A DNA stretch of 64,000 nt from a virus (IMGVR_UViG_2711768037_000005:1-64000), one strand, 5' to 3'; counted from the stretch's first letter, positions 5,061 through 49,062 are shown. Notes: generated by a model from the letters alone, not told the origin. Numbers and translations: made by a program.

Positions 5061-6401
5061 ATGACAGAACTTTGCCATACAGGACGCGGGCTGTCCGAAG
5101 AATTTGATGAAGATTTTCAGAACAGATTGACGGCCTATTTTTGTCGTGATCACGAGTTTCTTACTCGTGCGGGAGATCTTGTTGTGCCTAGCCAATTTGC
5201 CAATGCGGCCAATGCCATATTGGTTAATATGGTTTCGGGCTATTATCGTATGTACAAGAGCGCGCCCTCTTCATCTGCAATTCTGGATATGCTTAAGCGT
5301 GCGAAACGCGATAAGACTATCCGTGAGGAACTATTCGCCGATGTTGTTGCTGCGTTTAAGCGCATTCTTGCAGAAAAATTGTCCGATACCTCGTACATGG
5401 TTGACCAGGTATCAACCTTCGCAAAAAGCGTAGCGTTTGATGATGCTCTGATTAAGGCTGCTGAACTGAAAGAGAAAGGCGACTTTCAGGGGGCGATGGC
5501 AATCATGGCCAAGGTTCAGCAGATTGGATCGAACGAAGCGACCGGAATCTATGACTACTACACCTCCGCAAGTGAGCGATTGAAAGCGCGTGAATATGAG
5601 GCTTCAGAGGAGTATGTGCCAAACAGCATTACAACTGGACTCCCTCTGCTCGATAGGTTGCTGTACCAAAAAGGCTGGGCGAAGCGTGAAATGGTGCTCT
5701 TCATGGGGTTCGCTAAATCCGGTAAATCGACCGCAATGGGTGAGTTTTCCATAAACGCAACGCTTGCTGGCTACAATGTTCTGTATCTCTCGCTGGAGGT
5801 TCACACCAACATTTTGTCCGACCGTTTTGATGCAAGATTGTCGGAGACGGAAATGTCCAAGTTGGTGGAACGGCGCGATGAAGTTCATCGTAAGTTGGCA
5901 GAGTTGGGAGCCTCTAAGGGGATTGGTAGTTTGTGGGTTGTTGAGCGTCCGTCAGGAAGTATGTCACCGGCAGATCTGGACCGTATGCTTAACAGTATGA
6001 AAGCCAATGGCATGGTGCCTGACATGGTTGTTGTCGACTACGCAGATTTGATGCGTGCCAGTTATGACCTTCGTGATGATCGCGCCAACATTCGTAGTAT
6101 CTACACCGATTTACGTGCTCTTTATGACAAGCATAACGTTGCTGGGATCACGGCATCGCAGACAAACCGTGAAGGTGGCGCGTCAGAAGTTGCCACAATG
6201 ATGCACGCTGCTGACAACATCGAAAAAGTACGTATTGCTGACCTGGTAATAACGATCAATAAAACCGAAGAAGAAGAAGCGAAAGGAGAGGCTCGTCTCT
6301 ACTTTGCCGGTTCACGTAACCAGCAGGGAGGGATCAGCATTCGCGTTAAACAAAACCTCGAACAAATGCGCTTCATTCAGCGAATCTTAGACGTTACCTA
6401 A
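5061..6401 (+). CDS. DnaB-family replicative DNA helicase
   Basis: Walker A GFAKSGKST and RecA-like C-terminal domain; 446 aa; followed by primase. Confidence 0.6.
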   Translation: MTELCHTGRGLSEEFDEDFQNRLTAYFCRDHEFLTRAGDLVVPSQFANAANAILVNMVSGYYRMYKSAPSSSAILDMLKRAKRDKTIREELFADVVAAFKRILAEKLSDTSYMVDQVSTFAKSVAFDDALIKAAELKEKGDFQGAMAIMAKVQQIGSNEATGIYDYYTSASERLKAREYEASEEYVPNSITTGLPLLDRLLYQKGWAKREMVLFMGFAKSGKSTAMGEFSINATLAGYNVLYLSLEVHTNILSDRFDARLSETEMSKLVERRDEVHRKLAELGASKGIGSLWVVERPSGSMSPADLDRMLNSMKANGMVPDMVVVDYADLMRASYDLRDDRANIRSIYTDLRALYDKHNVAGITASQTNREGGASEVATMMHAADNIEKVRIADLVITINKTEEEEAKGEARLYFAGSRNQQGGISIRVKQNLEQMRFIQRILDVT

Positions 6402-6481
6402 AAAATAAGCGTGGAGAACACCTCCACGCTTGATTCATTGGTGAAACAACTTTTCTTTTGCCAAACCACAAAAGAAAAACA

Positions 6482-7664
6482 CATGAGCCTTTATGTTATA
6501 TCAACATTTAGGTTGGTCACAATATTGCCTGTTAAAAGTGGAATTATCGTGAGCGAGCTGAAAGAGCTAATTGCCGAATTAGATTTTGAACAATGGTTGG
6601 ATACTGAAGGTATCGTTTATCGACGTGGAGGCGTGAGTGCTCGCGGTCGTGAAGTGAATATCAAGGAGTGTCCGGTATGCGGCAGCTCCAACTGGAAGGT
6701 ATATTTCAATCTGACCAGTGGCGTCGGCAAATGCTTCGCTGGTGATCATCCCGAAGAGATTCAGTTCAATAAGCTGGTCTTCCTCAAGCACTACAGCGGT
6801 AAATCACGACGACAGTTCGAGGAATATGTGCAGAACGCTCTTCTTTCCCAGGGGTGGGCACCAAAGAAAGAAGAGATAGTGCTTGCAAGCACAGTCGAGT
6901 TAGAGGGACCACTTGCACTCCCTCGTCATTACGAACTTCCTATAGATGGCCGTCTTCCAGACTATCTGGTTGAACGAAACATATCGCCTGAAATGGCAAA
7001 GTATTTTGACCTACGATACTGCGTCGAAGGCAAGCACGCTTATGTAGATCCGTATACAGATCAGGTTAAAGGACAGATATTCGATATGCGAATACTGATA
7101 CCGGTTTACGATCTGGATGGGGTAATGAAGACATTTCAGGGACGAGACATTACCGGTACAGCAGAACGCCGCTACCTCTTTCCTATGCAGCTTCCAGCTT
7201 CAGGTAAGTTTCTCTACAACGGCCATAATGCAGTCGGCAAACAGACTGTAGTTGTCTGTGAGGGGGCGTTCGATGTTATGGGGGTTAAACGAGCTATTTT
7301 TTACGAAGAAACATTACGTGATTACGTGGAACCAATAGGAACGTTCGGGATGCATCTATCTGGTAACACCACTCAGGATGCAGAAGATCAGTTAGGCGCG
7401 TTCCTGACGCTCAAGGCGCGTGGGTTACGTAATGTGATCATGATGTGGGATAGTGAAAAGCAAGCTATACGCAACACTATGGCCGCAGCCAGGCGACTGA
7501 CCAGTATCGGTCTTAATGTCAAAGTTGCGTGTTTGGGTGAGGAAGGACTCGACCCGGGCGGTGCAACGCCAGAACAAATTATCAAAGCCTATTATCGGGC
7601 AAAACCGTATACCAAACAGTTGGAGTTGCAAAGCAAGATTTTGGGCATTAAGGCGCTATCGTAA
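6482..7664 (+). CDS. DNA primase (zinc-ribbon plus TOPRIM)
   Basis: CPVCGSSNWKVYFN zinc-binding motif; TOPRIM-like VVVCEGAFDVMGV and MMWDSEKQ; ATG at 6482 has the conserved AAAGAAAAACACATG context (ORF track start 6411). Confidence 0.6.
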
Positions 7665-8589: not shown

Positions 8590-9060
8590 GTGAAAGCTGA
8601 TTTGTCAAAAATCCCTTCTATTTCAGGAAATAACGGTTATTCACTTCGTTGTGAGGAAGTAAAGATAAACGGTGAGTCGGCATATTGCAGCTATTCCGTT
8701 TGCCAGCACACCATTCTTGCCTTCAAAGAAAACCGTCTTCCTCGAACTTCTTTCCAGTCGTGCGCAACCGCTATTAAAGCAGGCAAATGCAAGGCGTTAA
8801 AAATGATGGTTGAAGAGATTCGTAAAGGAGAATCTCTGTATTTCGAAGATATGACCGCACTCATTAAGGAGGTTGAAGAACGGAATAAACAAGCCAGAAC
8901 TATAAAACGAAAACGTGACAGTGTAACGATTAATGACATGGTTAAGAAGAGCGCCACATCACAAACAACGATCACTGACGTGTATGCGGCGTTGCTTGAA
9001 GAAACAACAAAAGAAACACATGAGCAAATCGATCAACATATGGAGGCAAAACAACAATGA
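8590..9060 (+). CDS. hypothetical protein
   Basis: ORF track; start uncertain. Confidence 0.35.
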   Translation: MKADLSKIPSISGNNGYSLRCEEVKINGESAYCSYSVCQHTILAFKENRLPRTSFQSCATAIKAGKCKALKMMVEEIRKGESLYFEDMTALIKEVEERNKQARTIKRKRDSVTINDMVKKSATSQTTITDVYAALLEETTKETHEQIDQHMEAKQQ

Positions 9061-10379
9061 AAAAGTTGATCGCACTTAAGCATAAGCTGGACGAAATGAA
9101 AGCTATGGGAACCAATGCAAAAAAAGAGGCATTGGCCAACATGGATGACTTTGAACAAAGCATGGTTTCATTGATGCTCAACCCTTTCATCCGTTTTGGG
9201 GTAAAGAAATACAAAGTGGCAGAGCCGCTTAGTGAGTCCGTCCCAAGTGACGAAAAAGCCATTGATATACTGAATAAGCTGGCCTCTCGCGAGCTGACGG
9301 GGAACGCAGCAATAGCAGCTGTTGAGTCTATCGTGGCGTCAATGTGCGCCGATGGGCAGGACGTGTTCCGTCGTTTCCTCTTAAAAGACCCGAAAGCAGG
9401 TGTTGGGATTAGCCTATGCAACAAGGTTTTTGAAAATCCCATTCCGAAATTCGAGGTGCAGCTGGCGTCACCGTATAAAGAAAAAGGCGACAAATACCCC
9501 TTCAAGCCAAATGCTAAAGCAAAATGGCCGATGATTGGCAGTCTTAAGCTCGATGGTTTGCGAGTAATTTGCGAGGTTATTGTTGACGAGGAAGAGGTTA
9601 ACTTCCTTTCTCGTACTGGTAATCCAATCACGTCTCTCGATCACCTAAAGCCAGCCATGCTCGAATTAGGCAAACTTTCAGGCCACAAACACATCTTCTT
9701 CGATGGTGAAGGAACTGCCGGTTCATTTAACCAGTCCGTATCTGCATTGCGCAAAAAGAACGTGCAGGCAATTGGCGCTATTTATCATGTTTTCGACTTC
9801 TTCCTACCGGAATGGCGAGCACAGGCTAAATCCAAAGAGTATGCAAAGACAGGTATGAAGCTGAAAGAGCGCCTGGCTATGCTGGTGGCGTTGTTCAAAA
9901 ACGATCGCAGTGAAGGCTACACACAAGACATTCACCTGCATCCGTTCTATATCATCCATAGCCACGAAGACTTCATCGAACGCTTCATGAAACGCCTGGA
10001 CGATAACGAAGAAGGGGAGATGGGCAAAGATCCGAACTCTGTTTACGAGTTTAAACGTACCCGCAGCTGGTGGAAGTTAAAAGACGAAGATTCAGAAGAT
10101 GGTGAAATTATCGACTTTGAGCCGGGCGATCCGGACTCTGGTTTTGCCAACACGCTTGGAAAAATTGTTATTCGTCTTGAAAACGGCGTCATCGTTCGTG
10201 CGAGCGGTATTAAGCATAAATATCTGGACGAGATCTGGAACAACAAAGAGAAGTACCGTGGTCGTATTGTTGAGGTTCATTGTCACGAGAAAACACCGGA
10301 TGGCAGCTTACGCCACCCACGACTGAAATGGCCGCGTTGCTTACGCGATACAGAAGATCGAATCGGAGATAAAGAATGA
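9057..10379 (+). CDS. ATP-dependent DNA ligase
   Basis: Adenylation motif I KLDGLR in SLKLDGLRVICEV; 440 aa. Confidence 0.7.
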   Translation: MKKLIALKHKLDEMKAMGTNAKKEALANMDDFEQSMVSLMLNPFIRFGVKKYKVAEPLSESVPSDEKAIDILNKLASRELTGNAAIAAVESIVASMCADGQDVFRRFLLKDPKAGVGISLCNKVFENPIPKFEVQLASPYKEKGDKYPFKPNAKAKWPMIGSLKLDGLRVICEVIVDEEEVNFLSRTGNPITSLDHLKPAMLELGKLSGHKHIFFDGEGTAGSFNQSVSALRKKNVQAIGAIYHVFDFFLPEWRAQAKSKEYAKTGMKLKERLAMLVALFKNDRSEGYTQDIHLHPFYIIHSHEDFIERFMKRLDDNEEGEMGKDPNSVYEFKRTRSWWKLKDEDSEDGEIIDFEPGDPDSGFANTLGKIVIRLENGVIVRASGIKHKYLDEIWNNKEKYRGRIVEVHCHEKTPDGSLRHPRLKWPRCLRDTEDRIGDKE

Positions 10380-17174: not shown

Positions 17175-19283
17175 ATGTCTAAAAAACGATCTATCAAAGA
17201 GATTCAAGACTTCCGTGACAGTGTAAAACGAGTAGTCGCTCTTCTTTCTGGTAAAAACATCCCTGTTGCAGAACGAGGGGACGACGCTTATGTACGCTAT
17301 AACGATGATGGAGAGCCAATTCTCGTAAACATCCCATCAATCCCGGATAACGCAACACCGGCATTGATGAATGCTGTGCGCGGATTTCTCGATCATGAGG
17401 TTGCTCACATTTTGTTTACCGATATTCGTGTGTCCAACAAAATGAGAGAAAAAGGACGCGTTCCTTCCTGGTCGCTATGGAATGCCTTAGAAGACGTGTT
17501 CATCGAGCGAAAAATGGGGCAGGTCTTTAACGGAACAAGACGTAATCTGATGGCAACTCAGCGCCTTATAATCGAAAAAGTCTTTAAACCAAAGGCTTCA
17601 GAGGCTATTGCTTATTGTGGCAAAGATCAGCGCGCGCTTTTTCTAAACTTCTTTCTCTGTCCGGTTGTAAGAGCCTGGGATGGCCAAGCACCGTTCGTTG
17701 ATTTCATGGATGAATACTGGCCTGTCATTGAGAAACCAATTTCATTATTAAAAGAACATGGTATCGATGTGGCCGTGCGTAACATGTCTTGCACCGAGGA
17801 TTGTGTAAAGGTGGCTGCGACCATAGCTAAGATCCTCAAAGACACTGAAAGTGAAAGCAAAGGTAAGGAGTCAGCTCCGGGAAAAACTTCCGATCCTTCA
17901 GACGCTGACCAAACGGATGCCTCTGGAGAAAACAATGAAGACAACGGAGATCATGAGACACCCAAGGCGTTAGATAATCACAAATCTATCAAACCAGAAT
18001 CGAACAGTAACCACAAACATGATAATAACGACAGTGATGATTCAGATAATTCTGAATCATCAGAAACAATATTCGATGATACAGAAAATGATAACGAGGT
18101 ATCAGATTCTGATGCTTCTGATAACGCGGCGTCAGAATCATTAACCGCTGACCACGAAAAAAGAAAAACGACAGAAGACGGCTCTTCAGATATTCCAACT
18201 CCGTCAAAAATGAGTCTGGAAGAGGCTTTAGAGGAGCTGGATAGCATAGAAGATGAAGTCGGAGGCATGACAGAAGATGCTCTATCCGAAACGATTAAAA
18301 GCGAGTTAACAGAAAGCTCGAAAAGCGAATACAGGCCATACAATCGCTCATACGACTTCATCGGCTCGATTGATCAGGCAGAAGCCCATATCAAACGGCT
18401 TATTAAAACATTCTCCGATATTGATTTAGGAGAATATCCAATCAGCCGCTATCGCATCGTTCCTGAAGGCAACCAGCTCTTCGACAAATATATTGAAAAG
18501 CATCTTTCGTCAGGTGTTTCGTCGACGCTGGCAAAAGACCTGGAGCGAGCAATAGCAAGCAGAAACAGAGTTCAGTTTATACCGGGCCAGCGTCGGGGGC
18601 GCATTCATGGTTCTAGTATCTACAGATTAGCAATGAATGATGATCGCGTGTTTCGTAAAAAAGAAGAATCTAAAGCCGTTAACGCCTGTGTTCAACAAGT
18701 GATTGATTTATCAGGTTCAATGAGTGGTATAACGATACAGTTGGCTCTTGCAAGTGCATATACCATCGCCGATGCCCTTGATCGAATAAATGTTCCCAAC
18801 ATTATCACCGGCTTCACTACATTTGGTAGTCATATGGCGGCAGGAGAACTTAAGGCTGTCAAGTATGAGTTCTCTCGCTTTGAATCTTTAATGCTACCTG
18901 TCATCAAAAATTGGAATGAAAAGGTAAATTCTCGCGAAGTTCGCTCACGTATGGGGTGCGTAGGCTACACATTCCCACTTCTTAATAACGTGGATGGTGA
19001 AAGCATAGCCAGCCTTGCATCGTTATTTTCAGGTCGCATGGAGGACAGGAAGATCATGCTTGTTCTGAGTGATGGCGCGCCGTGGGCTGTTGGGAGAGGT
19101 TTTGACGCCCATTTGCGTTCGGTTGCTAAGCAAATTGAAACGCAGACTGACATTGATTTGATGGCAATTGGCATCATGACTGACGCACCGGAGAGATTTT
19201 ACTCAAATCATGCCCTGGTAACGAGCGTTGATAGTCTTGGTTCATCTGTAGTTACTGAACTATCTCGTATCATTTTGAAGTGA
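17175..19283 (+). CDS. vWA-domain protein with acidic low-complexity centre (CobT-like)
   Basis: MIDAS-type DLSGSMSG; long D/E/S-rich linker DNNDSDDSDNSESSE...; paired with the downstream AAA+ ATPase. Confidence 0.6.
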   Translation: MSKKRSIKEIQDFRDSVKRVVALLSGKNIPVAERGDDAYVRYNDDGEPILVNIPSIPDNATPALMNAVRGFLDHEVAHILFTDIRVSNKMREKGRVPSWSLWNALEDVFIERKMGQVFNGTRRNLMATQRLIIEKVFKPKASEAIAYCGKDQRALFLNFFLCPVVRAWDGQAPFVDFMDEYWPVIEKPISLLKEHGIDVAVRNMSCTEDCVKVAATIAKILKDTESESKGKESAPGKTSDPSDADQTDASGENNEDNGDHETPKALDNHKSIKPESNSNHKHDNNDSDDSDNSESSETIFDDTENDNEVSDSDASDNAASESLTADHEKRKTTEDGSSDIPTPSKMSLEEALEELDSIEDEVGGMTEDALSETIKSELTESSKSEYRPYNRSYDFIGSIDQAEAHIKRLIKTFSDIDLGEYPISRYRIVPEGNQLFDKYIEKHLSSGVSSTLAKDLERAIASRNRVQFIPGQRRGRIHGSSIYRLAMNDDRVFRKKEESKAVNACVQQVIDLSGSMSGITIQLALASAYTIADALDRINVPNIITGFTTFGSHMAAGELKAVKYEFSRFESLMLPVIKNWNEKVNSREVRSRMGCVGYTFPLLNNVDGESIASLASLFSGRMEDRKIMLVLSDGAPWAVGRGFDAHLRSVAKQIETQTDIDLMAIGIMTDAPERFYSNHALVTSVDSLGSSVVTELSRIILK

Positions 19284-19378: not shown

Positions 19379-20614
19379 ATGACGACTACTGCACTGCAAA
19401 ATGAAAAAAATCCTTCTGATTACCTTGTTTGCAAGTGGTGCGGCAAATCATTTCACTATTTTAAGTCCCATGTAGCCAATGGTAATTGCGAGGGCATTCC
19501 TGAGTCAGTAAAAGATGCCGATCCTGACACCGTACTGAAAATGTACACAACGCAGTTTCCAGATGAGCCAACGCTATCGAAAAAGGCACTTGATGCAATT
19601 CAAGCTAAACGTGCCGAGCAAAAAAGCGAAATGGCCAAATCTTCTGGCTTGACCAGTAGCCCTGGCTACACAGGCACAGTTGAGTACAAGACAGATCTGG
19701 TCGCAGCTCACGAACTGCTAAACGTAACAGTGGAAGAACTCGGAACAAAACGTGGGACGCCGCTCATGGTTAGCGTCAACGTCAATACGCCGTATCCAGA
19801 GTTCGTTCCAGAAGTGAAGAAGGGCTACGTATATGGCGACTTCGAACTGATCAAAGATATTTTCATGATGCTTGAACTTGGCATACCTGGCTATTTGTGG
19901 GGTCATGCAGGAACAGGCAAATCGTCATTGCCTACACAGCTATGTGCTTTGCTCAATCGTCCGTTGATCCGTGCCCAACATACAGCATCAATGGAAGAGA
20001 CACATGTTACGGGGCAAATTCTGGCGCGTGATGGCTCTACGTATTTCGAGCCTGGCTTGCTTGCGCTCGCAATGAAGCATGGCTGGGTTTACCTCGCGGA
20101 TGAATACGACTTTGCGTTTCCACAGATTCTTGGCGTGTATCAGCCAGTGCTGGAAGGTGAAGCGTTGGTCATCAAAGAGGCGACTCCAGAATGGCGTCGC
20201 ATTACTCCGCATGAACGGTTTGCTTTCATTGGCACTGGCAACACGAACGGATCTGGTGATGAAACCGGCTTGTACCAGGGTACAAACATCCAGAACGCCG
20301 CGAACTTTTCGCGTTTTGGCATCGTTTCGAATGTGAAATACATGAGCAAAGAGGCAGAGATCAACATGTTGATAAATGCCGGTATCGTGGATGAATACGC
20401 AGAAAAGATGGTTAAGTTTGCCGGTATCGTTCGCGATGGATACGAAGAACACCTTATCAGTCAGCCAATTGGCCCTCGTGAACTTTTGTTGTCGGCCAAG
20501 ATTGGAATGATGCGAGGCGACTTTGTGACAGGTATTGAACGTTCTTTCATTAACAAACTCCCTTCAGCTTCTGCACAAGCGGCTCGTGAAGTTGTTCAAA
20601 AAATATTTGGTTGA
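19379..20614 (+). CDS. AAA+ ATPase of MoxR/CobS type
   Basis: Walker A GHAGTGKSS, Walker B VYLADEYDF; N-terminal Cys/His cluster CKWCGKSFHYFKSH; conserved AAAGGAAAAACGCATG start context. Confidence 0.65.
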   Translation: MTTTALQNEKNPSDYLVCKWCGKSFHYFKSHVANGNCEGIPESVKDADPDTVLKMYTTQFPDEPTLSKKALDAIQAKRAEQKSEMAKSSGLTSSPGYTGTVEYKTDLVAAHELLNVTVEELGTKRGTPLMVSVNVNTPYPEFVPEVKKGYVYGDFELIKDIFMMLELGIPGYLWGHAGTGKSSLPTQLCALLNRPLIRAQHTASMEETHVTGQILARDGSTYFEPGLLALAMKHGWVYLADEYDFAFPQILGVYQPVLEGEALVIKEATPEWRRITPHERFAFIGTGNTNGSGDETGLYQGTNIQNAANFSRFGIVSNVKYMSKEAEINMLINAGIVDEYAEKMVKFAGIVRDGYEEHLISQPIGPRELLLSAKIGMMRGDFVTGIERSFINKLPSASAQAAREVVQKIFG

Positions 20615-20794
20615 TCGTGCGTAAAGGATGTTTCGGCTCTCTTATCGCTGCTTCTGAAACTGGTAAGGCTTGTCTGGTGTGTCCAGACAAGCCCGATTGT
20701 CACCAATCAGCAAAAGAAGTTGCGATTTCGATGCATGGGAAGTTCGTAGGCTTCCCCAATGACAAAATCAAAAAAACCAGAAAGGTAAAAACAC

Positions 20795-23700
20795 ATGAAG
20801 GCACTGATGGTTCGAACTGACTTCTCACTTGGGGAGTCGGCTTTAAAAGCAGAAAACGCGGTGAAGATTGCCAGAGAAGCTGGCTACACCGCTGTAATTT
20901 CAGCAGATAGCATGAATATTGCGAGTGTTATTCCACTACAACGTGCCGCTGGTGACGACATGGCGGTTATTTGTGGTGTGAAACTAAACATCGTTGATGA
21001 TCCCACATACGAGCACCGAGCTAAACTTGCTAAAGAATCTAAGAGGTGTATGGAATCATTAGAGCGAGGACGCAACTACTCGTTTACCGCTCTAATTAAA
21101 AATGAGCAAGGATATCGCGACATCTGCGAACTAATGACGGTGGCCAACACACGAGAACAGTTCTACTTTGTACCGCGTCTCTCGCTCGAACAGTTGGTTT
21201 CTACATATGCCAAAGGCAACATCATCCTGCTCACTTCCGACATCGGTAGCGTGTTCCAACGCAACGATTTTGCAAAAATCATAAGCACACTGATTACAGC
21301 GGGTGGAAAAGACAACTTCTATAGTGTGGTTTATCCGCACCCTACCCCATTCTACGACCAGATTAACGTCCGGGCGATGAAAGTTGCCAGCGCACTGAAA
21401 ATAGAGCCAGTAGCGTTTTATCCCGCTTATTACGAATCGATCGACGATGCTGACATTAAAGACATTGCGCACATGGTTACGAACAACATCAAAATCGACC
21501 AGCCGCATCGTCTGCGTATCCCCCACCAGCGAGATAACGCCATCAATGGTCGCCGCCATCTCCTTGAGGCGCTTAAAACCTTCTCCGTTCGCATGGATGT
21601 GCCGGTAACAGCTGCAATGGCCTCAACAACGCAGGATACCATTATCGATGCCTGCACATGGCGCTGGCATGAATTGCCGCCAGCACTGCCAAAGATGGCA
21701 GACGACGAGCCTGCAACGCTGATGAAACTGGCTGTTGCAGGGCTGCGTAAACGTCTTACCACAAAAGAGTTTGGCTACACACCACCTGCTTCTGAGAACA
21801 GGGTTTATGTTGAGCGGCTAAAGTACGAAATGGACACGCTGACTCGCCTGGGATTCTGTGGTTACTTCCTGATGGTGCGCGATCTGATGAATCATAGTCG
21901 TGAAACTGGCATTCCCGTTGGGCCTGGTCGTGGTTCCTCTGCCGGTTCTCTGGTGGCGTGGTGCATAGGCATAACCAACGTCGACCCAATCCGTCACGGT
22001 CTTCTGTTTGAGCGTTTCATCAACCCTGAGCGTCTCGACTTGCCGGATGCGGACTTGGACTTCAGCCAGGCACGTCGCCATGAGGTGATCGAGTATCTGA
22101 ATGAACGCTACGGCGAAGATTACGTTGCAGGCATTCCGAACTTCACCTACCTGGGCGCCGCCTCTGCACTACGTGACACCGCTCGTATTTATGGTGTGGA
22201 GTCCGCAGATATGGCGGTATCAAAAGAACTGAAGAACGTCGAGGATGATAGCCTTCCATTGGAAGAACTGCGCGAACAACTGGCAAGTCTCGACAAATAC
22301 GCAACAAAATATCCTGATGCATTCAATGCAGCCTGCAAGTTACAAAGCCTTATGCGTGGCTTTGGTAGACATGCGGCAGGGATGATCGTAGCAGGTGTTC
22401 CTCTGACAGAACGTACACCGGTTGAGCGCCGTGGTGACGCGCGTTGTATCGCATTTGACAAGCGTTACTGCGAGGCTATGGGCCTAATTAAACTGGACGT
22501 GCTTGGTCTGGCAACTCTCGATTTGCTCGATAGTGCAAAACGCTACATCAAAGAGAGTACCGGGGAAGACATCAATCTTGATGCCATTTCTCTTGAAGAT
22601 CGCAAGGTGCTGGATGGTTTTGCTGCTGGGTACACTCAAGGTGTTTTCCAGCTTGAATCAGGCCCAATGCGCAAGCTGCTTAAAGATTTAGGTGGTGGAA
22701 TTGAGCCAATGAGCTTTAAAACGGTCGTCGCTACAACTGCGCTCTTCCGGCCGGGGCCAATTCAATCAGGCATGTTGGATGACTATGTTTCTGTCGCCAA
22801 AGGCTTTATGACGCCGGAATCATTACACCCCGTTCTTGATGAACTTACCGCGGAAACAAATGGCGTGATTCTCTATCAGGAACAGACGATGAACGCGACT
22901 CGATTGCTTGCCGGCTTCACAATGGCTGAAGCTGACGGTGTGCGTTCCGCAATCGGTAAGAAGAACATGGAAAAAATGAAGAGCATGGGCGAGAAGTTCA
23001 TCGTTCAGGCTCAAGCTGGCTGGATAGACGTTGAGCTGGAAGATGGCACTACACAGCGCATTCACCGTGCGGAACATTTTAAATGCGAAGACGGAACTCT
23101 GAAAACTGTCGAAGAGGCACTTGAGTACGGCGCAAAACTACCTATAAACGCAGTACGCGTTACAGCGTCACATCCAGGGCTATCAGAGATGAAAGCGAAG
23201 GAGATCTGGACCGCATTCGAAAAGAATGGTGCCTACCAGTTCAACAAATCACACTCTGTTGCTTACTCCTTAATCAGTTATCAATCTATGTGGTTGAAAA
23301 CTCATTATCCCGCAGAGTTTTTCGCTGCTGCTCTCACTATTCTTGGCGAAGATAAACACCAGGGGCTGGTTAAAGATGCGCTGACCTATGGTATTCGCGT
23401 ATTACCACCAGACGTTAACATGTCATCTAACCGAATCGAGATCCGCACGCTTGAAGATGGCAGCCAGGTGCTGTATGCGCCCTTCTCTGCTGTGAAAGGT
23501 TGTTCTGAGAATGGCTGCCAGGCCATCATGAGAGCACGAGAAAAAGTTGGCGGCAAATTCGAGTCACTGGCGCAATTCGAAGAAGCTGTCGAGAAACGTG
23601 CCTGTAATAGTCGAGTGCGCGAATCGCTGCAAAAAGTAGGGGCGTTTGCATCCATCGAGCCAGGTAGTCTGCCAGCAACTGATCCAGAGCGCCTACGCGA

Positions 23701-24313
23701 CCAGGCTGAATTGATGGGAAACCTTGTCATAGACGCAGTTAAAGCCTCACGTCCGTTTGAGATGAACCCCAAACGTTCGGCTGAAATTAACGTACTCATG
23801 ACGCGGATGGCGGCTGAAATGGGCTTAGGTGATGAACTAATCCGCCCCAGCATTGGTATTAAGCCGAAAATCATGATCATTCTGGACAATGCGAACGGCA
23901 ATGATACTCGAACCGGTTACTTCATGGAAAACGGATACGACGATTTTAAGGCCAAGCTATTGACGGCTGGAGATTTACGCATGGGCGATCTCTATGTCAC
24001 AGGAGTTTGCAAGAAGGTTAAAGACAAAGAAAAAGACTACACCAAAGACGAGATCGGCCAGTTCACCGACTTTATGCGTGAAGAGATCAATCTGGTGCGT
24101 CCGACCTATGTGCTGACGTGTGGCAGCCGGGCAACTTCATTGTTTAACAACAAAAACAAGCCATCCGATTTGGTCGGCAGGAAGGAGTATCTTCCAGACC
24201 TTGACGTTACTGTCTTTTACGGGTTTAACCCCAACATTCTTTACTTCAGACCTGAAGAGGGAGAACGACTAGAAGCTATATTAGCCGACGTAGCAGAAAC
24301 TATTAAGACGTGA
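20795..24313 (+). CDS. dnaE: DNA polymerase III alpha subunit (DnaE-type, PHP domain)
   Basis: N-terminal PHP-like MVRTDFSLGESALK; palm motif GPGRGSSAGSLVAWCIGITNVDPI; 1172 aa. Confidence 0.85.
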   Translation: MKALMVRTDFSLGESALKAENAVKIAREAGYTAVISADSMNIASVIPLQRAAGDDMAVICGVKLNIVDDPTYEHRAKLAKESKRCMESLERGRNYSFTALIKNEQGYRDICELMTVANTREQFYFVPRLSLEQLVSTYAKGNIILLTSDIGSVFQRNDFAKIISTLITAGGKDNFYSVVYPHPTPFYDQINVRAMKVASALKIEPVAFYPAYYESIDDADIKDIAHMVTNNIKIDQPHRLRIPHQRDNAINGRRHLLEALKTFSVRMDVPVTAAMASTTQDTIIDACTWRWHELPPALPKMADDEPATLMKLAVAGLRKRLTTKEFGYTPPASENRVYVERLKYEMDTLTRLGFCGYFLMVRDLMNHSRETGIPVGPGRGSSAGSLVAWCIGITNVDPIRHGLLFERFINPERLDLPDADLDFSQARRHEVIEYLNERYGEDYVAGIPNFTYLGAASALRDTARIYGVESADMAVSKELKNVEDDSLPLEELREQLASLDKYATKYPDAFNAACKLQSLMRGFGRHAAGMIVAGVPLTERTPVERRGDARCIAFDKRYCEAMGLIKLDVLGLATLDLLDSAKRYIKESTGEDINLDAISLEDRKVLDGFAAGYTQGVFQLESGPMRKLLKDLGGGIEPMSFKTVVATTALFRPGPIQSGMLDDYVSVAKGFMTPESLHPVLDELTAETNGVILYQEQTMNATRLLAGFTMAEADGVRSAIGKKNMEKMKSMGEKFIVQAQAGWIDVELEDGTTQRIHRAEHFKCEDGTLKTVEEALEYGAKLPINAVRVTASHPGLSEMKAKEIWTAFEKNGAYQFNKSHSVAYSLISYQSMWLKTHYPAEFFAAALTILGEDKHQGLVKDALTYGIRVLPPDVNMSSNRIEIRTLEDGSQVLYAPFSAVKGCSENGCQAIMRAREKVGGKFESLAQFEEAVEKRACNSRVRESLQKVGAFASIEPGSLPATDPERLRDQAELMGNLVIDAVKASRPFEMNPKRSAEINVLMTRMAAEMGLGDELIRPSIGIKPKIMIILDNANGNDTRTGYFMENGYDDFKAKLLTAGDLRMGDLYVTGVCKKVKDKEKDYTKDEIGQFTDFMREEINLVRPTYVLTCGSRATSLFNNKNKPSDLVGRKEYLPDLDVTVFYGFNPNILYFRPEEGERLEAILADVAETIKT

Positions 24314-24987: not shown

Positions 24988-26016
24988 ATGTCTAAGACAT
25001 TACTTGATTTGCTTAACAAAACTCGTGAAGACATTGCCGCCAAACGTGGTAACAACGTTGATCTGACTCGTTTAAAAGATGGCGTCAACTATATCCGTAT
25101 CTTCCCGAATAAAGACGACCCAAACGGTAAGTTCTTCCAGACTTTCGGTATGCACTACGTTAAGTATCAGAACGAGGAAGGTAAAGAAGCAACCAACGCT
25201 TATATTTGTGAGCAACATACTCACGGTCGCGCTTGTCAGCTATGCGAAATGGTGATGGAAGGTCGCGCTCGTCACAAGGGTAACAAAGCAATGGAAGAAC
25301 GCATCGGTCAAATGCGTGCCACTCCTCGCTACCTGGTCAACGGCATTCTTTCTGCTCGTGAGGATTTCGCAGATGCTGAGAAATGCCAGTTAATCGAGCT
25401 GCCGTCTACTGTATTCGATGATATCTGCAAAGCAATCACCGAAGACATCGCTGATGATATCGGCAATCCACTGAGCAAAGAGGAAGGCTACGCATTCCTG
25501 ATTAAACGTACTGGCTCTGGTCGCGATACCAAATATGACGTCTCGCCTAAGCGTAAAGTCTACAAAGGCGATATCGAAGATAAATTCTGGAACACCCAGC
25601 ATGATCTGATCGCATACGCAAATCAGGCTGATGAAACTCGTCTTCTGTCGACAGTTCGCACTATGGGTCGTCTGATTGGCATCGCTGCACCAACTGCCGC
25701 AGCATCTGCACCAGCAATTTCCTCAACCGCGAAAACATCGGCCGCGGCACTGCCTGGATTTGGCTCTGTCACTGGTCATACGGAGGGTGCGACTGCTGTA
25801 GCTACCGCTCACACCCCAGCTTCTGAACCAACCAGTCTGGTTGATGAAGAAATCCTCCGTGCCGTTGAAACTGAATTTAAACCAGAAGCAAGTTCCGCTG
25901 CCGTTGCAGTATCAGTCAAAGAGTCTGAAGCAGTCGCAGCGACATCTGTAGCAGCCGCATCTGCGACGGAAGATGAAGGTCTGGATGACCTACTGAGAGA
26001 GCTGGACTCTCTGTAA
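24988..26016 (+). CDS. single-stranded DNA-binding protein, T4 gp32-like (putative)
   Basis: IRIFPNKDDPNG resembles gp32 IRFLPSKNDE; Cys/His cluster CEQHTHGRACQLC; Ala/Ser-rich linker and acidic C-terminal tail. Confidence 0.5.
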   Translation: MSKTLLDLLNKTREDIAAKRGNNVDLTRLKDGVNYIRIFPNKDDPNGKFFQTFGMHYVKYQNEEGKEATNAYICEQHTHGRACQLCEMVMEGRARHKGNKAMEERIGQMRATPRYLVNGILSAREDFADAEKCQLIELPSTVFDDICKAITEDIADDIGNPLSKEEGYAFLIKRTGSGRDTKYDVSPKRKVYKGDIEDKFWNTQHDLIAYANQADETRLLSTVRTMGRLIGIAAPTAAASAPAISSTAKTSAAALPGFGSVTGHTEGATAVATAHTPASEPTSLVDEEILRAVETEFKPEASSAAVAVSVKESEAVAATSVAAASATEDEGLDDLLRELDSL

Positions 26017-26043
26017 TCCCATTACGTGACCAGTAAGGCGTCT

Positions 26044-26073
26044 ACGGACGCCTTACTTTTTGGAAGGAATGTA
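26044..26073 (+). terminator. rho-independent terminator
   Basis: GTAAGGCGTCTACGGACGCCTTAC then TTTTTGG; member of the GGCGTC...GACGCC hairpin family. Confidence 0.4.
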
Positions 26074-26076
26074 CCG

Positions 26077-27021
26077 GTGAATTATCTCTTCGTAGATGGC
26101 AATAGCCTGGGTTATTACCACCAACAATCTGACAAATTGCACAACGGCGAAATGGAAGTACAGGCTGCTTTCGGCTTTGTTAAGAACGTCCGTCGTTATG
26201 CCTCCATCCTCCATGCCCGACCTATGATTCTTTGGGATGGATTTAGTGACAAGCGTCGCGACTTTTACCCGGACTACAAAGCAAATCGCGACGACGATCC
26301 TGATATGAAAAAGATGAAGGAAGGCTTTGCTATCCAGAAGCCATACATCCTCAAAATGATGACCGCGCTTGGAGTTACCCAACTCATTGCAAAAGATGCA
26401 GAAGCGGATGATCTGGCCGGGCTGCTGGTAGCCAGCATTGCACCGCAGCCAATCGTTGAACACATCTATCTGTTAACAGGCGATAGCGACTGGCTTCAGT
26501 TAGTTCGCGAAAACGTAAGCTGGGTAAGCCTGCGCGAAGACGCCAAAAACAAGCAGGTTAATTTTGAGCAATTTGCGGAGCTGACAGGATTCGCTACTCC
26601 TCGCGCATTTTTGGAAGCAAAAGCATTACAAGGCGATAAATCGGACAACATTAGCGGTGTTGGTGGCATTGGTGCTGGCGGTGCGAAAGAGCTGCTGCAT
26701 GAATGGGGAAGTGTCGCAACGATGGTACGCGGCATCAACGACGGCTCAATCGTGGTTAATAAAGGGCGTCATAAGACCGCCTTCAACAAACTAGCGAAGA
26801 ATGCCTTCAACGAGAAAACAGGCTGTCGAATGCTCGAAGCGTTCAAGAGAAACATCACGCTAATGAACCTGATTGAGACGAAGTTTCCGCCTACCGAAAT
26901 CGAAACAATCAAAGGCAATCGTGACGTGAAAGCATTCGAGCAACTGTGCTACGAGCTGAATTTCCGTTCGTTCCTTGAAGACCTTGAAGTGTTTGTTCTT
27001 CCATTCGAAAGGTATTGCTAA
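26077..27021 (+). CDS. 5'-3' exonuclease / flap endonuclease (FEN family)
   Basis: N-terminal VDGNSLGYY; H3TH-type LQGDKSDNISGVGGIG; ORF-track ATG at 26026 lies inside the upstream terminator hairpin, so GTG at 26077 is the likelier start. Confidence 0.7.
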   Translation: MNYLFVDGNSLGYYHQQSDKLHNGEMEVQAAFGFVKNVRRYASILHARPMILWDGFSDKRRDFYPDYKANRDDDPDMKKMKEGFAIQKPYILKMMTALGVTQLIAKDAEADDLAGLLVASIAPQPIVEHIYLLTGDSDWLQLVRENVSWVSLREDAKNKQVNFEQFAELTGFATPRAFLEAKALQGDKSDNISGVGGIGAGGAKELLHEWGSVATMVRGINDGSIVVNKGRHKTAFNKLAKNAFNEKTGCRMLEAFKRNITLMNLIETKFPPTEIETIKGNRDVKAFEQLCYELNFRSFLEDLEVFVLPFERYC

Positions 27022-44342: not shown

Positions 44343-45221
44343 ATGAACTTTACCAAACTGACTGACCACCTGAAACTTGCCACCGATCGACTCATTGGAT
44401 TTAAGCCAGAACCATATGAGTTGCATGAAGGTCATGGTGTAGCTACTGAAAGTATTTACAAGATGGTCGATCAGTTTCATGAACTCTTCCAGCATCCGAG
44501 ACGCGTTATGCCGACACCAGAGCTGCTTCGTCTCCGTGCAAGCCTGATTCATGAAGAAGCTGTAGTGGAAGGTATTCCAGCCGCAATGAATGGGGATATT
44601 GAGCAACTGCTGGATGCAATGGCCGACTTTTTATACGTTGGTATTGGTACGATGGTCGCCATCAAAGGTGGTATTTCTACCGGCATGACCTATTACACGC
44701 AGGAACAGAGCATTGATCGCTTTATGCAGACAATTTTTGTGCCTGGTAACACTGTTTTCGATGATATGGCAATGCCATTTCAGGAAGCTCGTGAGGCGTC
44801 ATGTATGCTCGAAGAGCTGGCAGATAAACTTGAGAACAAGACTGTTAAGGATTCTGAGCTGATTCAGGAACTGCGCCGTGTCATGAACAAAATCTATGTG
44901 GCGTGCATGATGACCTATCGACTGGCTGATTTCCTCGGTATCAATGTAGTTGAGCTGGTTGGCGAAATTCATCGGTCTAACATGACAAAATTATGGCCTG
45001 CTGATGTCGAGGAACGTCGCCAGGCTGTGGCCAACTGCAAATACGACTCTTCAGATCTGGGATTCCGCCATGCTGATGGCACCGATAAGATGATCGGTTT
45101 TCGAATTTCCGATGGAAAGATTCTGAAGTCTCCAACCTATAGTGATGTAGATTTATCCTCCTTTGTTGAGCAAGCTAAAGCCTCTGCAATGTATGAAATG
45201 ATAAAAAATAATTGTAGGTGA
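44343..45221 (+). CDS. hypothetical protein; possible MazG-like all-alpha NTP pyrophosphohydrolase
   Basis: Weak resemblance of IHEEAVVEGIPAAMNGDIEQLLDAMADFLYVG to MazG EExxE...D metal-binding helix pair; sits in the nucleotide-metabolism block. Confidence 0.3.
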   Translation: MNFTKLTDHLKLATDRLIGFKPEPYELHEGHGVATESIYKMVDQFHELFQHPRRVMPTPELLRLRASLIHEEAVVEGIPAAMNGDIEQLLDAMADFLYVGIGTMVAIKGGISTGMTYYTQEQSIDRFMQTIFVPGNTVFDDMAMPFQEAREASCMLEELADKLENKTVKDSELIQELRRVMNKIYVACMMTYRLADFLGINVVELVGEIHRSNMTKLWPADVEERRQAVANCKYDSSDLGFRHADGTDKMIGFRISDGKILKSPTYSDVDLSSFVEQAKASAMYEMIKNNCR

Positions 45222-45354: not shown

Positions 45355-46485
45355 GTGGTTACTTATCTTTGTGAGGTTTTTGTGTCACTCCTTTTGAATC
45401 GTGAGCATACGAACGGTCAGGTAACAAACGCATCGTATGCAAAAGTTATTGAGACGGTGCTTAAAAGCGGCGTGCAGGCTGATGATCGCACAGGCACTGG
45501 TACTTTAAGCACCTGCTACGTTCCCTCTTACTACATGCTTACTGGTGGGACTGTGCCGCTTATTTCTGGAAAGGCGGTAAATCTTAAGCCACTGCTTGTC
45601 GAACTTGAGTGGTATCTGAAAGGCACGGGCAACATCCAATTTCTCAAGGATAACGGCGTTAAGATTTGGGATGCATGGGCCGATGAGAATGGCGATTTGG
45701 GGCCGGTTTACGGTAAGCAGTGGCGTCGATGGGAAGATACCCGCATCGTGAGCCATAGTGAATATCTGAGCAAGATCGCTACTTTCCGTGAACGCGGGTA
45801 CAAAGTCGAGGGATACCTGGGTATCAGTGAAGATCGCGTAGTGCTGTCCCGTGAAATCGATCAGCTACAGCGTATTGTCGATACACTGCGCACGAACCCT
45901 ACCGATCGTCGCATCATGCTTAACGCATGGAACGTAGGCGAGCTTGAGGATATGAAACTGCCACCTTGCCACTTTGTCTTCTCTTTGTGGAGTCGTGAGC
46001 TGGATTTTGAAACCCGTTTAACGATGGCAACTGACATTGGTCTTCAACACAGTCGCCTCGGTTACGAGTCTATCTACACCAAGATGCTATACGATCTGGA
46101 GATGGACGGCAGTGTTACTGAAGCTGAACTGGATGAACTTGGAATCCCCAAACGCATCCTCAACTCCTGCCTCGTACAGCGTAGCGTAGACACTTTTGTT
46201 GGTATGCCATTCAATATTGCTGGCTATGGCATTCTCACTCATTTTCTCGCGAAGATTACGGGTCACATGGCCGGTGCATTTGTGCATTTTGGCTTTGACG
46301 TGCATTTGTACAACAACCACATGGAAGGTGTGTGTGAGCTAATGAAACGACAGGCTCCAGAGCATTCAGATCCGGTCGTTATTTTCCCTCATGAATGGTC
46401 AGAGTTGGATGATTTCAAATGGGACGAGGTTTTAATTCTTGGCTATGACCCTCTACCGTGGATCAAGGTTCCAGTGGCGGTGTGA
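45355..46485 (+). CDS. thyA: thymidylate synthase (ThyA family) carrying two internal insertions
   Basis: DRTGTGT, WDAWADENGDLGPVYGKQWRRW, RRIMLNAWNVGEL, catalytic LPPCH, C-terminal GYDPLPWIKVPVAV all align with E. coli ThyA; about 30 and 50 extra residues at two sites; start codon ambiguous (GTG 45355 or 45382). Confidence 0.85.
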   Translation: MVTYLCEVFVSLLLNREHTNGQVTNASYAKVIETVLKSGVQADDRTGTGTLSTCYVPSYYMLTGGTVPLISGKAVNLKPLLVELEWYLKGTGNIQFLKDNGVKIWDAWADENGDLGPVYGKQWRRWEDTRIVSHSEYLSKIATFRERGYKVEGYLGISEDRVVLSREIDQLQRIVDTLRTNPTDRRIMLNAWNVGELEDMKLPPCHFVFSLWSRELDFETRLTMATDIGLQHSRLGYESIYTKMLYDLEMDGSVTEAELDELGIPKRILNSCLVQRSVDTFVGMPFNIAGYGILTHFLAKITGHMAGAFVHFGFDVHLYNNHMEGVCELMKRQAPEHSDPVVIFPHEWSELDDFKWDEVLILGYDPLPWIKVPVAV

Positions 46486-46486
46486 T

Positions 46487-46900
46487 ATGGCAAGAGGTAT
46501 GTATGTCTTATGCGAAATTGAAGGTGTGCTGGCAAATGCCAGCCATCGTAAATCAGTATCTGACGCGGATGCAGGCCAGCTCATTGCCGGTGATGAACTC
46601 ATTTTCCCCACCAGCCGTATGTTGCGTGGTTTTGCTCGCTCAGGGGCTGAAGTGGTGCTTATCAGTAGCCGCTCTGAAACTCTTGAAGCGCCAACTAAAC
46701 GATGGCTGAAAGATTTTGGCGTTGATTATGACTGGCTTCATCTCGTACCGAATGGCACCAGTTATGAGAAGCATATTAAGCGCACATTAGCGGAGCATAA
46801 AGGCGATCTGCTTATCGCTGCGCTGGTGCACGATCCTCGACTCCGTGCCGCTTTAGCCGACTCTCACCATCGACCGGTCATCTATGAGGTGAGCAAATGA
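46487..46900 (+). CDS. hypothetical protein
   Basis: In-frame ATG at 46487 just after thyA stop (ORF track 46439); translationally coupled to DHFR gene. Confidence 0.3.
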   Translation: MARGMYVLCEIEGVLANASHRKSVSDADAGQLIAGDELIFPTSRMLRGFARSGAEVVLISSRSETLEAPTKRWLKDFGVDYDWLHLVPNGTSYEKHIKRTLAEHKGDLLIAALVHDPRLRAALADSHHRPVIYEVSK

Positions 46901-47373
46901 AGATGATCGCTGCTGTTGGCCGTAACTATGAGATCGGCATAGCGAATGAACTCCCCTGGCGTTGTTCTACCGATCTGAAGCTATTTAAGAGACTCACCAA
47001 AAACGCCACTGTCGTTATGGGGCGTAAAACGATGGAAAGTCTCAAACGCCCTCTTCCAGAGCGTCATAACCTCGTTTTGACGCGCTCTCATGGCTTTGTA
47101 CCAAATGGATTCTACCCTGCTGGTGTGGATGATGTGTTGCGATTACCAGAGCCTGTGTGGGTGATTGGCGGGGAACAAATTTACTCGCTATTCATGCCGC
47201 ATGTTGAAGAGATTTGGCTCTCCCACATCGGCGTTGATGTACCAAACGCCGATGCATTCTTCCCGGCAAGCATGATGCGTAACTTAGGCTTTGTGCCTGT
47301 TGAAACAGCTTATACCCAACGAGCCAGCGAGGAAGAGCCTGGCTTTTCGCAGATCGTATACAGAAGGTCGTAA
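46897..47373 (+). CDS. dihydrofolate reductase
   Basis: MIAAVGRNYEIGIANELPW and VVMGRKTMESLKRPLPER match the DHFR N-terminal fold; 158 aa; adjacent to thyA. Confidence 0.8.
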   Translation: MKMIAAVGRNYEIGIANELPWRCSTDLKLFKRLTKNATVVMGRKTMESLKRPLPERHNLVLTRSHGFVPNGFYPAGVDDVLRLPEPVWVIGGEQIYSLFMPHVEEIWLSHIGVDVPNADAFFPASMMRNLGFVPVETAYTQRASEEEPGFSQIVYRRS

Positions 47374-48507: not shown

Positions 48508-49062
48508 ATGACAACGATTGTTGCAGGCATCGATATCGAGTCTACGGGACTGGATTTCCTTGCTGGTCATAAAATTATTGAAATCGCAATTACCCGCTAT
48601 GAACTGGAGACACAGAGACATATTGATAGTTTTGTAATGCGGTTCAACCCGCGTCGCAGTATCGATCCGAAAGCGCAAGCGGTACACGGCATCAGTCTTG
48701 AAGATTTAGCCGCCGAGCCGTTACTAGCCGATCACGCTTCATCTGTCGCTTCGTACCTCTCTTCTTCCGATATTTGGATAGCCCACAACGGCGAAGCGTT
48801 CGATATTCCGTTTATTAGGCATGAGCTGAAAAGTTACGGTTTTTCGCTTCCAGACATCCCATTGATTGACACTCTATTTTCCCTGTGGGCCACAGAAGAC
48901 GGTAAACGTCCCCGCCTTGAAGAGTTGGCCTTCTCTCTTGGCTTTATATACGATCATGCCAAAGCACATAGTGCCTTATATGACACAAACTTAATGATGC
49001 AATGCTTCTTTAAGGCACGTAATAAGTACGGATTTTTTAAATTACCCTCTGAAATTGTGTAA
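48508..49062 (+). CDS. DnaQ-like DEDDh 3'-5' exonuclease (proofreading epsilon-like)
   Basis: Exo I GIDIESTGLD, Exo II AHNGEAFDIPF, Exo III HSALYDT. Confidence 0.7.
   Translation: MTTIVAGIDIESTGLDFLAGHKIIEIAITRYELETQRHIDSFVMRFNPRRSIDPKAQAVHGISLEDLAAEPLLADHASSVASYLSSSDIWIAHNGEAFDIPFIRHELKSYGFSLPDIPLIDTLFSLWATEDGKRPRLEELAFSLGFIYDHAKAHSALYDTNLMMQCFFKARNKYGFFKLPSEIV

Follow-up and report, generated by a model that had tools for sequence, protein, structure and literature searches.

What does a DNA polymerase of the bacterial DnaE type work with when the region through which DnaE binds tau has been exchanged for another domain? This question is raised by a gene in IMGVR_UViG_2711768037_000005:1-64000, a viral DNA of 64,000 nucleotides (nt) that is called the window below. 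A first-pass annotation, made from the sequence alone, had placed there a Pol III alpha homologue of 1172 amino acids (aa), a separate exonuclease gene and a small Cys-rich open reading frame (ORF), and all three ORFs were found at the positions and with the lengths that it had given.

We compared the polymerase gene with known replicons. It was 97-99% identical to the gene of Escherichia coli phage-plasmids (Escherichia phage CMS-2020a, PhiR41_1 and plasmid NZ_CP027369) and ~80% identical to that of Klebsiella phage-plasmids. Its DNA identity was 84.6% to SSU5, 84.7% to the Yersinia pestis plasmid dnaE and 84.3% to a Salmonella plasmid copy, and the Y. pestis and Salmonella matches covered 98-100% of the gene. 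In PLSDB, 749 plasmids had a match. Because of these identities and the PLSDB matches, the window is assigned by sequence to a phage-plasmid of the SSU5/pHCM2/pMT1 type, of which it forms a part.

The catalytic part of the protein is that of a C-family DNA polymerase, in which the four Pfam core domains all scored above their gathering thresholds. The NCBIfam model TIGR00594 was matched above its cut-off (629.6 against 434 bits), and the match to phrog_405, named 'DNA polymerase', spanned residues 4-1171. The score for NF004226, the equivalog model of canonical DnaE1, was below its cut-off (676.4 against 1002 bits). BLASTP aligned residues 4-956 with residues 9-893 of E. coli K-12 DnaE at 30% identity (E 3e-113). 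The catalytic Asp triad that marks the Pol-beta-like palm is kept, with D418, D420 and D568 standing opposite E. coli D401, D403 and D555, and the alignment shows that the predicted polymerase active site is intact.

The domain-level alignment with bacterial DnaE ended at E. coli residue 893, and a normal alignment over the OB and tau-binding domains was not seen. No BLASTP alignment was obtained to residues 894-1160 of E. coli DnaE, where its internal beta motif, OB fold and tau-binding domain are located. At default thresholds no Pfam match was found past residue 955 of the polymerase, and no OB match appeared even in a relaxed scan. The earlier impression, gained by eye, that the last part of the protein does not resemble the tau-binding tail of host DnaE is therefore correct by both BLASTP and Pfam, and the OB and tau-binding domains are absent.

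We found that a different domain occupies this place. In the relaxed Pfam scan a uracil-DNA glycosylase (UDG) match was obtained below threshold (E 0.002, score 18.6 against 24.3), and the four top matches of a phmmer search of the Protein Data Bank (PDB) were all family-4 UDGs, with weak E-values. The NCBIfam model UDG_fam4 (TIGR00758) was matched with an E-value of 1.4e-8, at a score of 34.6 against a cut-off of 125.3. When a profile was built from nine SSU5-type C-termini, it retrieved from the PDB family-4 UDGs only (E 3e-7 to 1e-6). Residues 784-1172 were then modelled by AlphaFold2 (AF2) on a multiple alignment of 41 sequences, and the model had a mean confidence (pLDDT) of 89.6 and a predicted TM-score (pTM) of 0.78; single-sequence AF2 of the C-terminus gave a pLDDT of 37.7 and was unusable. 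In a Foldseek search with the alignment-based model, the top 31 PDB matches were all family-4 UDG or UdgX (E ~1e-10, TM 0.66-0.78). The alpha/beta fold of a UDG is present in the model, and the C-terminal OB and tau-binding domains of canonical DnaE1 are not. Because the NCBIfam match, the nine-sequence profile search, the AF2 model and the Foldseek search agree, we conclude that residues ~985-1172 are predicted to form a UDG fold of family-4 ancestry. The suggestion of the first-pass annotation that the tail had been swapped for another module thus held, in that a well-folded and different domain, a degenerate family-4 UDG fold, is predicted there. The family is broad: in an exhaustive profile search, 661 cluster representatives had E <= 1e-3, and 124 had E <= 1e-10.

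To see what remains of the glycosylase, 108 polymerase-fused members were aligned with four bona fide family-4 UDGs. Motif A, GE(A/G)PG in the enzymes, is L1030-D-N-A-N1034 here, with a family consensus of x-D-[A/C/G]-P-x. The Asn that recognises uracil (N80 of Thermus thermophilus) is G1070 and is Asn in none of the 108 members, and the His of motif B, HP(S/A) (T. thermophilus H155), is N1145 and is His in a single member. In the SSU5-type sequences no CxxC or other Fe-S cysteines were found, and the third canonical Cys ('KC') is missing throughout the family; a pattern C-x2-C-x(4-12)-[C/H] at the Fe-S site is kept in 40 of 107 distant members (P0025, P0032, P0035 and others, at the equivalent of aa ~1000-1020). 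Motif A, the Asn/His pair, the four Fe-S cysteines and scores above the curated model thresholds, which together mark a family-4 UDG enzyme, are accordingly all lacking in the window protein. The reading of the domain as an active glycosylase was rejected on the loss of Asn in 108/108 and of His in 107/108 members. We conclude from these alignments that canonical glycosylase activity appears to have been lost family-wide, with the fold, and possibly the pocket, seemingly under selection.

The core architecture has been documented before, and in this respect our finding is confirmatory and not a discovery. Timinskas et al. (2014) reported 'DnaEX', with the order PHP-Pol3-(HhH)2-UDG, on plasmids of Y. 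pestis (pMT1-type) and Salmonella enterica (pHCM2-type), in which an archaeal-type (family-4) UDG stands where DnaE otherwise has its OB and C-terminal domains (PMC3919608); for the DnaE-UDG variant that paper cites Aravind and Koonin (2000). The window polymerase has the same core with a PF03167-type tail on an SSU5-like replicon; it belongs to the same gene family, has the same architecture and shows no structural difference from 'DnaEX'. PMC3919608 gives 'DnaEX' one sentence and does not analyse its catalytic residues, partners or distribution. In the literature that could be searched there appears to be no account of how catalytic residues were lost throughout the family, of the family's breadth, of the co-occurrence with the exonuclease or of the split alleles described below; a clamp-like motif and a dead PHP domain are also added relative to that paper.

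We favour, with a probability of about 0.6, a reading in which this polymerase would be the replicative C-family enzyme of the phage-plasmid, its OB and tau-binding domains having been replaced by a dead family-4 UDG fold. It would act in the element's own replisome, with a DnaB-like helicase, a primase, a gp32-like single-stranded DNA-binding protein (SSB), a FEN-type nuclease and a ligase, and outside the host Pol III holoenzyme, because nothing is present in the protein to bind tau. The 184-aa DEDDh exonuclease would proofread in trans, and the host beta clamp would probably be used. The UDG fold would serve as a structural module that excises no uracil and stands in for the OB and C-terminal domains. 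It may handle the single-stranded template in front of the active site or add processivity, by analogy with the UDG domains of viral replicases of the A and B families, which are placed on the path of the template; or it may dock a partner of the phage replisome.

The PHP domain of Mycobacterium tuberculosis DnaE1 has nine metal ligands. In a HMMER alignment (7pu7 numbering), H14, H16, D23, H48, E73, H107, C158, D226 and H228 correspond to M5, R7, E14, S39, K63, a gap, S148, P210 and Y212 of the window polymerase, so that none of the nine is retained and one change, D to E, is conservative. The metal-coordinating residues in the cleft of a PHP-proofreading DnaE of the M. tuberculosis or Taq type are thus absent, and since all nine ligands are replaced, the polymerase would be unable to proofread through its own PHP domain.

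The first-pass annotation had proposed a DnaQ-like DEDDh exonuclease, and its gene, 24.2 kb downstream of the polymerase, encodes what such an enzyme should have: an RNase_T match, an alignment to epsilon and the DEDDh residues (D9-I-E11, the D of 'AFD' and H154-x4-D159, all aligned with epsilon). The model phrog_192, 'DNA polymerase exonuclease subunit', matched it with an E-value of 4e-51. Its likeness to E. coli epsilon is confined to residues 11-176 (29% identity), and it scored below both epsilon equivalogs, at 73.7 against 196 bits for NF004316 and 71.9 against 222.7 bits for TIGR01406. It differs from epsilon in its length (184 against 243 aa) and in lacking the 182-243 segment, which in epsilon holds the QTSMAF clamp motif and the alpha(PHP)-binding tail. 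A C-terminal 'NKYGFFKLP' at the position of QTSMAF was considered and discarded, as it did not fit the consensus of clamp motifs.

We searched 50,697 phage records by tblastn with the UDG-like domain and with the exonuclease. The UDG-like domain was found in 31 of them, all with genomes of ~105-122 kb, which comprise SSU5-like, Pseudomonas nickie-like, Stenotrophomonas and Rhizobium RHEph10-like phages and Xanthomonas JGB6. Orthologues of the exonuclease (E <= 1e-14; 41-44% identity in distant phages) were present in exactly the same 31 records, with six weak matches elsewhere. Owing to this 31/31 co-occurrence and to the dead PHP domain, the exonuclease is the likely trans-acting proofreader of the polymerase. 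The two genes lie ~24-27 kb apart in the window, in Pseudomonas phages nickie and hairong and in Rhizobium phage RHEph10, and such similar spacing in distant phages indicates long-range conservation of the genome architecture.

A contact with the host beta clamp is suggested by the stretch R966-L-R-D-Q970-A-E-L-M-G-N-L. Its family pattern, R966-x-[K/R]-D-Q970-x-E-L-[M/L]-[P/G]-G-[L/I/V], is among the most conserved stretches in 108 relatives (R966 in 103, Q970 in 97, E972 in 75, L973 in 86, M/L974 in 89 and P/G975 in 99). This stretch lies 21 aa after the conserved GAF motif, and both its position and its pattern match 920-QADMF-924, followed by G, in E. coli. As Q-x-E-L-[M/L]-[P/G] sits where E. 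coli alpha has QADMF, the polymerase can probably run on the beta clamp of the host. The scanned ORFs of the window include neither a clamp nor a clamp loader, and none is listed in the PGAP annotation of a 99%-identical plasmid (100 of 109.6 kb). Kazlauskas and Venclovas have noted that viral C-family polymerases diverge past the fingers and usually come without clamp genes (PMC3201878).

Compared with E. coli alpha (DnaE1), then, the phage polymerase shares PHP-palm/thumb-fingers-(HhH)2, where HhH is helix-hairpin-helix, at 30% identity over ~950 residues, the Asp triad and a QxxLx-type motif after the HhH region. It differs in having no OB and tau-binding domain, in a PHP site that is even more degenerate, and in an insertion of ~51 aa in the fingers. 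Against Taq DnaE, query residues 740 and 792 both fall on Taq residue 789. The insertion follows the pattern 'G[WY][IV]xVELxDG...H...TVxEAL'; it is beta-rich, is kept in distant relatives and is absent from both E. coli and Taq DnaE.

Several observations weigh against the favoured reading. The exonuclease is without the C-terminal tail by which epsilon is held on the PHP domain, and its co-occurrence with the polymerase could be no more than a reflection of a shared conserved genome backbone. QAELMG is predicted to be helical (residues 181-194 of the AF2 model), and clamp motifs bind in extended form. The contacts that we propose for the UDG-like domain with DNA or protein are drawn from analogy and sequence. 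The domain is also acidic (pI 5.1; family median 5.8, with 19% of members above pI 8), and a non-specific DNA-binding processivity module would look otherwise; a basic DNA-binding surface was considered, and the acidity weakens the simple idea of a 'processivity clamp'. Lastly, the pocket framework is conserved (D1031, an acidic residue at 1037, Y1067, T1069, K1073 and P1146), so that some binding of a base or ligand is possible. The acidity favours a docking or mixed role, and the conserved framework favours a residual nucleic-acid contact.

This framework, with D at the E41 position in 93 of 108 members, would also suit a domain that is still a sensor of uracil or modified bases, which reads the template before the fork arrives and either removes the base or brings the polymerase to a halt. 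The UDG fold is intact and confidently predicted, and the element devotes ribonucleotide reductase (RNR), ThyA-like, dihydrofolate reductase (DHFR) and MazG-like genes to the supply of dTTP and the control of dUTP. There is a precedent, because an active template-reading UDG fused to PolA has been documented in SP15-like phages, alongside a dead UDG in N4-like PolA (bioRxiv 10.1101/2025.03.26.645540). The A-family polymerases of phages with a fused UDG indeed fall on both sides, those of N4-like and T5-like phages being catalytically dead and those of SPO1-like and SP15-like phages active and template-reading; the uracil pocket of archaeal PolB may also be compared. However, the domain lacks Asn80 in all and His155 in all but one of the 108 members, GEAPG has become LDNAN, the SSU5-type sequences have no Fe-S cysteines, and both UDG scores lie far under their thresholds, which makes this explanation unlikely.

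It is somewhat more plausible, but still improbable, that the UDG fold acts solely in protein-protein contacts, as an adaptor that touches no DNA and replaces the tau-binding domain, with the helicase/primase, the gp32-like SSB or the CobS/CobT pair as its partner. The acidic net charge would agree with this, as would the place of the domain at the extreme C-terminus, where alpha binds tau, and the order CobT-CobS-...-DnaE-UDG-...-gp32-FEN-RecA, which is syntenic in relatives at only ~30-35% identity. But the solved assemblies of a polymerase with a UDG all have the UDG on the path of the template (10.1101/2025.03.26.645540), and a simple adaptor would not need its pocket framework conserved. 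In the poxvirus E9-A20-D4 holoenzyme the UDG acts as a processivity subunit of a B-family polymerase, and a processivity hypothesis has been put forward for the UDGs of SPO1/T5 and vaccinia D4 (PMC3201878). D4 is a separate and active family-1 UNG that is bridged by A20, whereas the domain described here is fused, derived from family 4 and catalytically dead. The polymerase might instead have an accessory or translesion role (DnaE2-like), or its gene be a passenger in decay, and the enzyme would then not be the replicase of the element. Timinskas et al. placed 'DnaEX' as an additional polymerase (PMC3919608), and an initiator of the Rep3/RepB type could bring in host Pol III while the element is maintained as a plasmid. 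We regard this as very improbable, since the protein is under strong purifying selection (92-94% protein identity at ~80-85% DNA identity), its active site is intact, its gene lies inside a full module with helicase, primase, SSB, FEN and ligase, lytic phages of Pseudomonas, Rhizobium and Stenotrophomonas with genomes of ~110 kb have kept this module, and the partners ImuA and ImuB are absent.

The same gene is found in two pieces in many relatives. The homologues of the C-terminus in the databases are mostly ~389 aa long; of the 150 best-ranked cluster representatives, 45 have the full length and 47 are fragments of ~360-435 aa, most of which start at one position, with an FNKSH motif at about residue 33. 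These split C-terminal fragments carry the NCBI name 'uracil-DNA glycosylase'. We considered whether the matches of ~390 aa were gene-calling artefacts and rejected this, because on the contigs a genuine stop codon is followed by an HNH ORF and a new start. In a 103-kb Logan contig (L007:1918-6170), an N-terminal part of 787 aa is followed by an ORF of 231 aa with NUMOD4 and HNH_3 domains and by a C-terminal part of 389 aa that starts with 'MKIAKVISEQEGLS'. The split point corresponds to nt 23143/23144 of the window (aa 783/784), at the end of the fingers insertion, and the window allele itself is uninterrupted.

The HNH gene was present in 243 of the 749 dnaE-carrying PLSDB plasmids and was >=99% identical in 205 of them, which belong to five genera. 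The flanking dnaE differs by 15-20% between lineages that share the near-identical HNH gene, and this is the signature of a spreading homing endonuclease. Two distant relatives (30-40% identity; L009 and L010) break at the same place, one with a different HNH gene upstream and the other with a 45-aa NUMOD4 remnant. A mosaic patch at nt ~22808-23240 (aa ~672-815) surrounds the site: the window and SSU5 have one type and Cyrano and CMS-2020a (CP053388) another, the patch includes an indel of 4 aa, and the remaining protein is >90% identical among the four. In sequence the patch is consistent with co-conversion tracts around a homing site.

A split intein was also considered. The tails at the break are ~46 and ~10 aa long ('...GWVTLSLENG...DIVDFGV*' and 'MKIAKVISEQEGLS'), with no Cys1 and no HN-Cys, and their residues are also retained in uninterrupted alleles, and the idea was rejected. 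Dassa et al. (2009) have described 'fractured genes' with intein halves of 88-105 aa and 33-54 aa (PMC2677866); unlike these, the split dnaE alleles have no split-intein halves. They resemble more the nrdA/mobE locus of Aeromonas phage Aeh1, where a free-standing HNH gene also lies between the halves of an essential replication gene and no intein is present. The fingers insertion may be the interface that holds the two halves of the split polymerase together.

If these threads are joined, the dead UDG fold would replace the OB/tau module, either gripping or scanning the single-stranded template or docking the phage helicase or SSB, in a replisome independent of the host clamp loader, and the split alleles would encode a replicase of two polypeptides. 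We hold this extended proposal only tentatively and consider it doubtful as a whole. If it were true, the C family would join the A and B families as the third in which polymerases have independently recruited a UDG fold for the same job, and a C-family replicase would work as two non-covalently assembled polypeptides joined via a beta-rich insertion and with no intein. The locus is of interest for what the dead UDG fold may do and for the polymorphism between split and uninterrupted genes. With no tau contact, no PHP activity, a tail-less epsilon and a dead UDG fold, this replicase is a natural experiment in the rewiring of the Pol III core, and could give insight into how a C-family polymerase becomes autonomous from the host holoenzyme. 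It also offers a test case for UDG-fold recruitment as a general solution across A-, B- and C-family replicases, and the split alleles are a ready-made two-piece DnaE for protein engineering and studies of evolution. The SSU5/pHCM2/pMT1-type phage-plasmids are very common in clinical Enterobacteriaceae and carry resistance genes such as dfrA51.

The features of the locus are listed in Table 1. Pfam scans of the window ORFs showed that a near-complete replication module is encoded, with further genes for a Rep3/RepB-type initiator, SbcCD, RNR, MazG-like, ThyA-like, DHFR, Dam and RNase H proteins.

Table 1. Features of the polymerase locus and of the replication module, with positions counted from the first nucleotide of the window.
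Feature	Position	Strand	Basis or remark
dnaE-like C-family polymerase, 1172 aa, PHP-Pol3-fingers-(HhH)2-UDG-like	20795..24313	+	ATG ORF, Pfam
PHP domain, degenerate, aa 6-176	20810..21322	+	Pfam PHP E 6e-13
Palm/thumb aa 309-571 and fingers aa 574-740	21719..23014	+	DNA_pol3_alpha E 1.3e-73; finger E 3e-43
Fingers insertion of ~51 aa, aa ~741-792, 'GWIDVELEDGTTQRIH...TVEEAL...'	23015..23170	+	gap against E. coli DnaE
(HhH)2/beta-binding-domain region, aa 866-955	23390..23659	+	HHH_6 E 1.5e-16; aligns with E. coli and Taq DnaE
Candidate beta-clamp motif, R966-L-R-D-Q970-A-E-L-M-G-N-L	23690..23725	+	conservation, position
Predicted UDG-fold domain, aa ~985-1172, in place of OB and tau-binding domains	23747..24310	+	
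DnaQ-like DEDDh 3'-5' exonuclease, 184 aa, catalytic domain only	48508..49062	+	Pfam RNase_T E 4.5e-23
Small Cys4 ORF, 69 aa, TTG start	20611..20820	+	ORF; phrog_6337 E 2e-45
DnaB-like helicase	5061-6401	+	Pfam DnaB_C E 3.7e-13; PGAP name agrees in 99%-identical plasmid
DnaG/Toprim-like primase	6411-7664	+	DNAG_N and Toprim_2 matches weak; PGAP name agrees in 99%-identical plasmid
ATP-dependent ligase	9057-10379		
CobT-like vWA protein	17175-19283	+	Pfam CobT, CobT_C
CobS/MoxR-like AAA+ ATPase	19379-20614	+	Pfam AAA_5; directly 5' of small ORF/dnaE
gp32-like ssDNA-binding protein	24988-26016	+	Pfam gp32 E 1.7e-66
FEN-type 5'-3' exonuclease	26026-27021	+	Pfam 5_3_exonuc_N, 5_3_exonuc
RecA-like protein, 357 aa	27290-28363		

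The CobT/CobS-like pair was found 5' of the DnaE-UDG gene in every relative that we examined (L007 and L013-L016), including metagenomic ones at ~30-35% identity. This conserved adjacency suggests a functional tie of the pair to the replicase and not to cobalamin synthesis. Downstream of dnaE, the synteny of gp32 and FEN is kept in L010 and L013-L015.

The overlap of the small Cys-rich ORF with the polymerase start, which had been pointed out before, amounts to 26 nt. Its cysteines are C7, C21, C24 and C30, in the pattern C-x13-C-x2-C-x5-C-H, and in the SSU5, Klebsiella and E. coli relatives examined the frame is open and all four are kept. The TTG start overlaps the TGA of the upstream AAA+ gene, to which the ORF is, from this arrangement, predicted to be translationally coupled. 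PGAP left it unannotated in the closest plasmid. In distant DnaE-UDG loci the same slot is taken by unrelated ORFs, for example a protein with sigma-70 region 2 in L015.

Some minor observations were made on neighbouring genes. The RecA-like protein of the window is without an insertion of ~410 aa that is found at aa ~65-76 in a near-identical E. coli plasmid, where the ORF has 779 aa and the PGAP name 'LAGLIDADG family homing endonuclease'; around the insertion site the 5' flank is 84% and the 3' part 100% identical. The RecA of the distant relative L014 carries an Intein_splicing domain. The DHFR (46897-47373, 158 aa) is identical at 157 of 158 positions to the protein on NZ_CP027369 that PGAP names trimethoprim-resistant DfrA51, and dfrA50 and dfrA51 in phage-plasmids are the topic of PMC12217456. 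The ThyA-like ORF (45355-46485) has 376 aa, against 367 aa in PGAP, and the thymidylate synthase Pfam model matched it in two stretches, which implies an internal insertion. It adjoins the gene of the MazG-like pyrophosphohydrolase (44343-45221).

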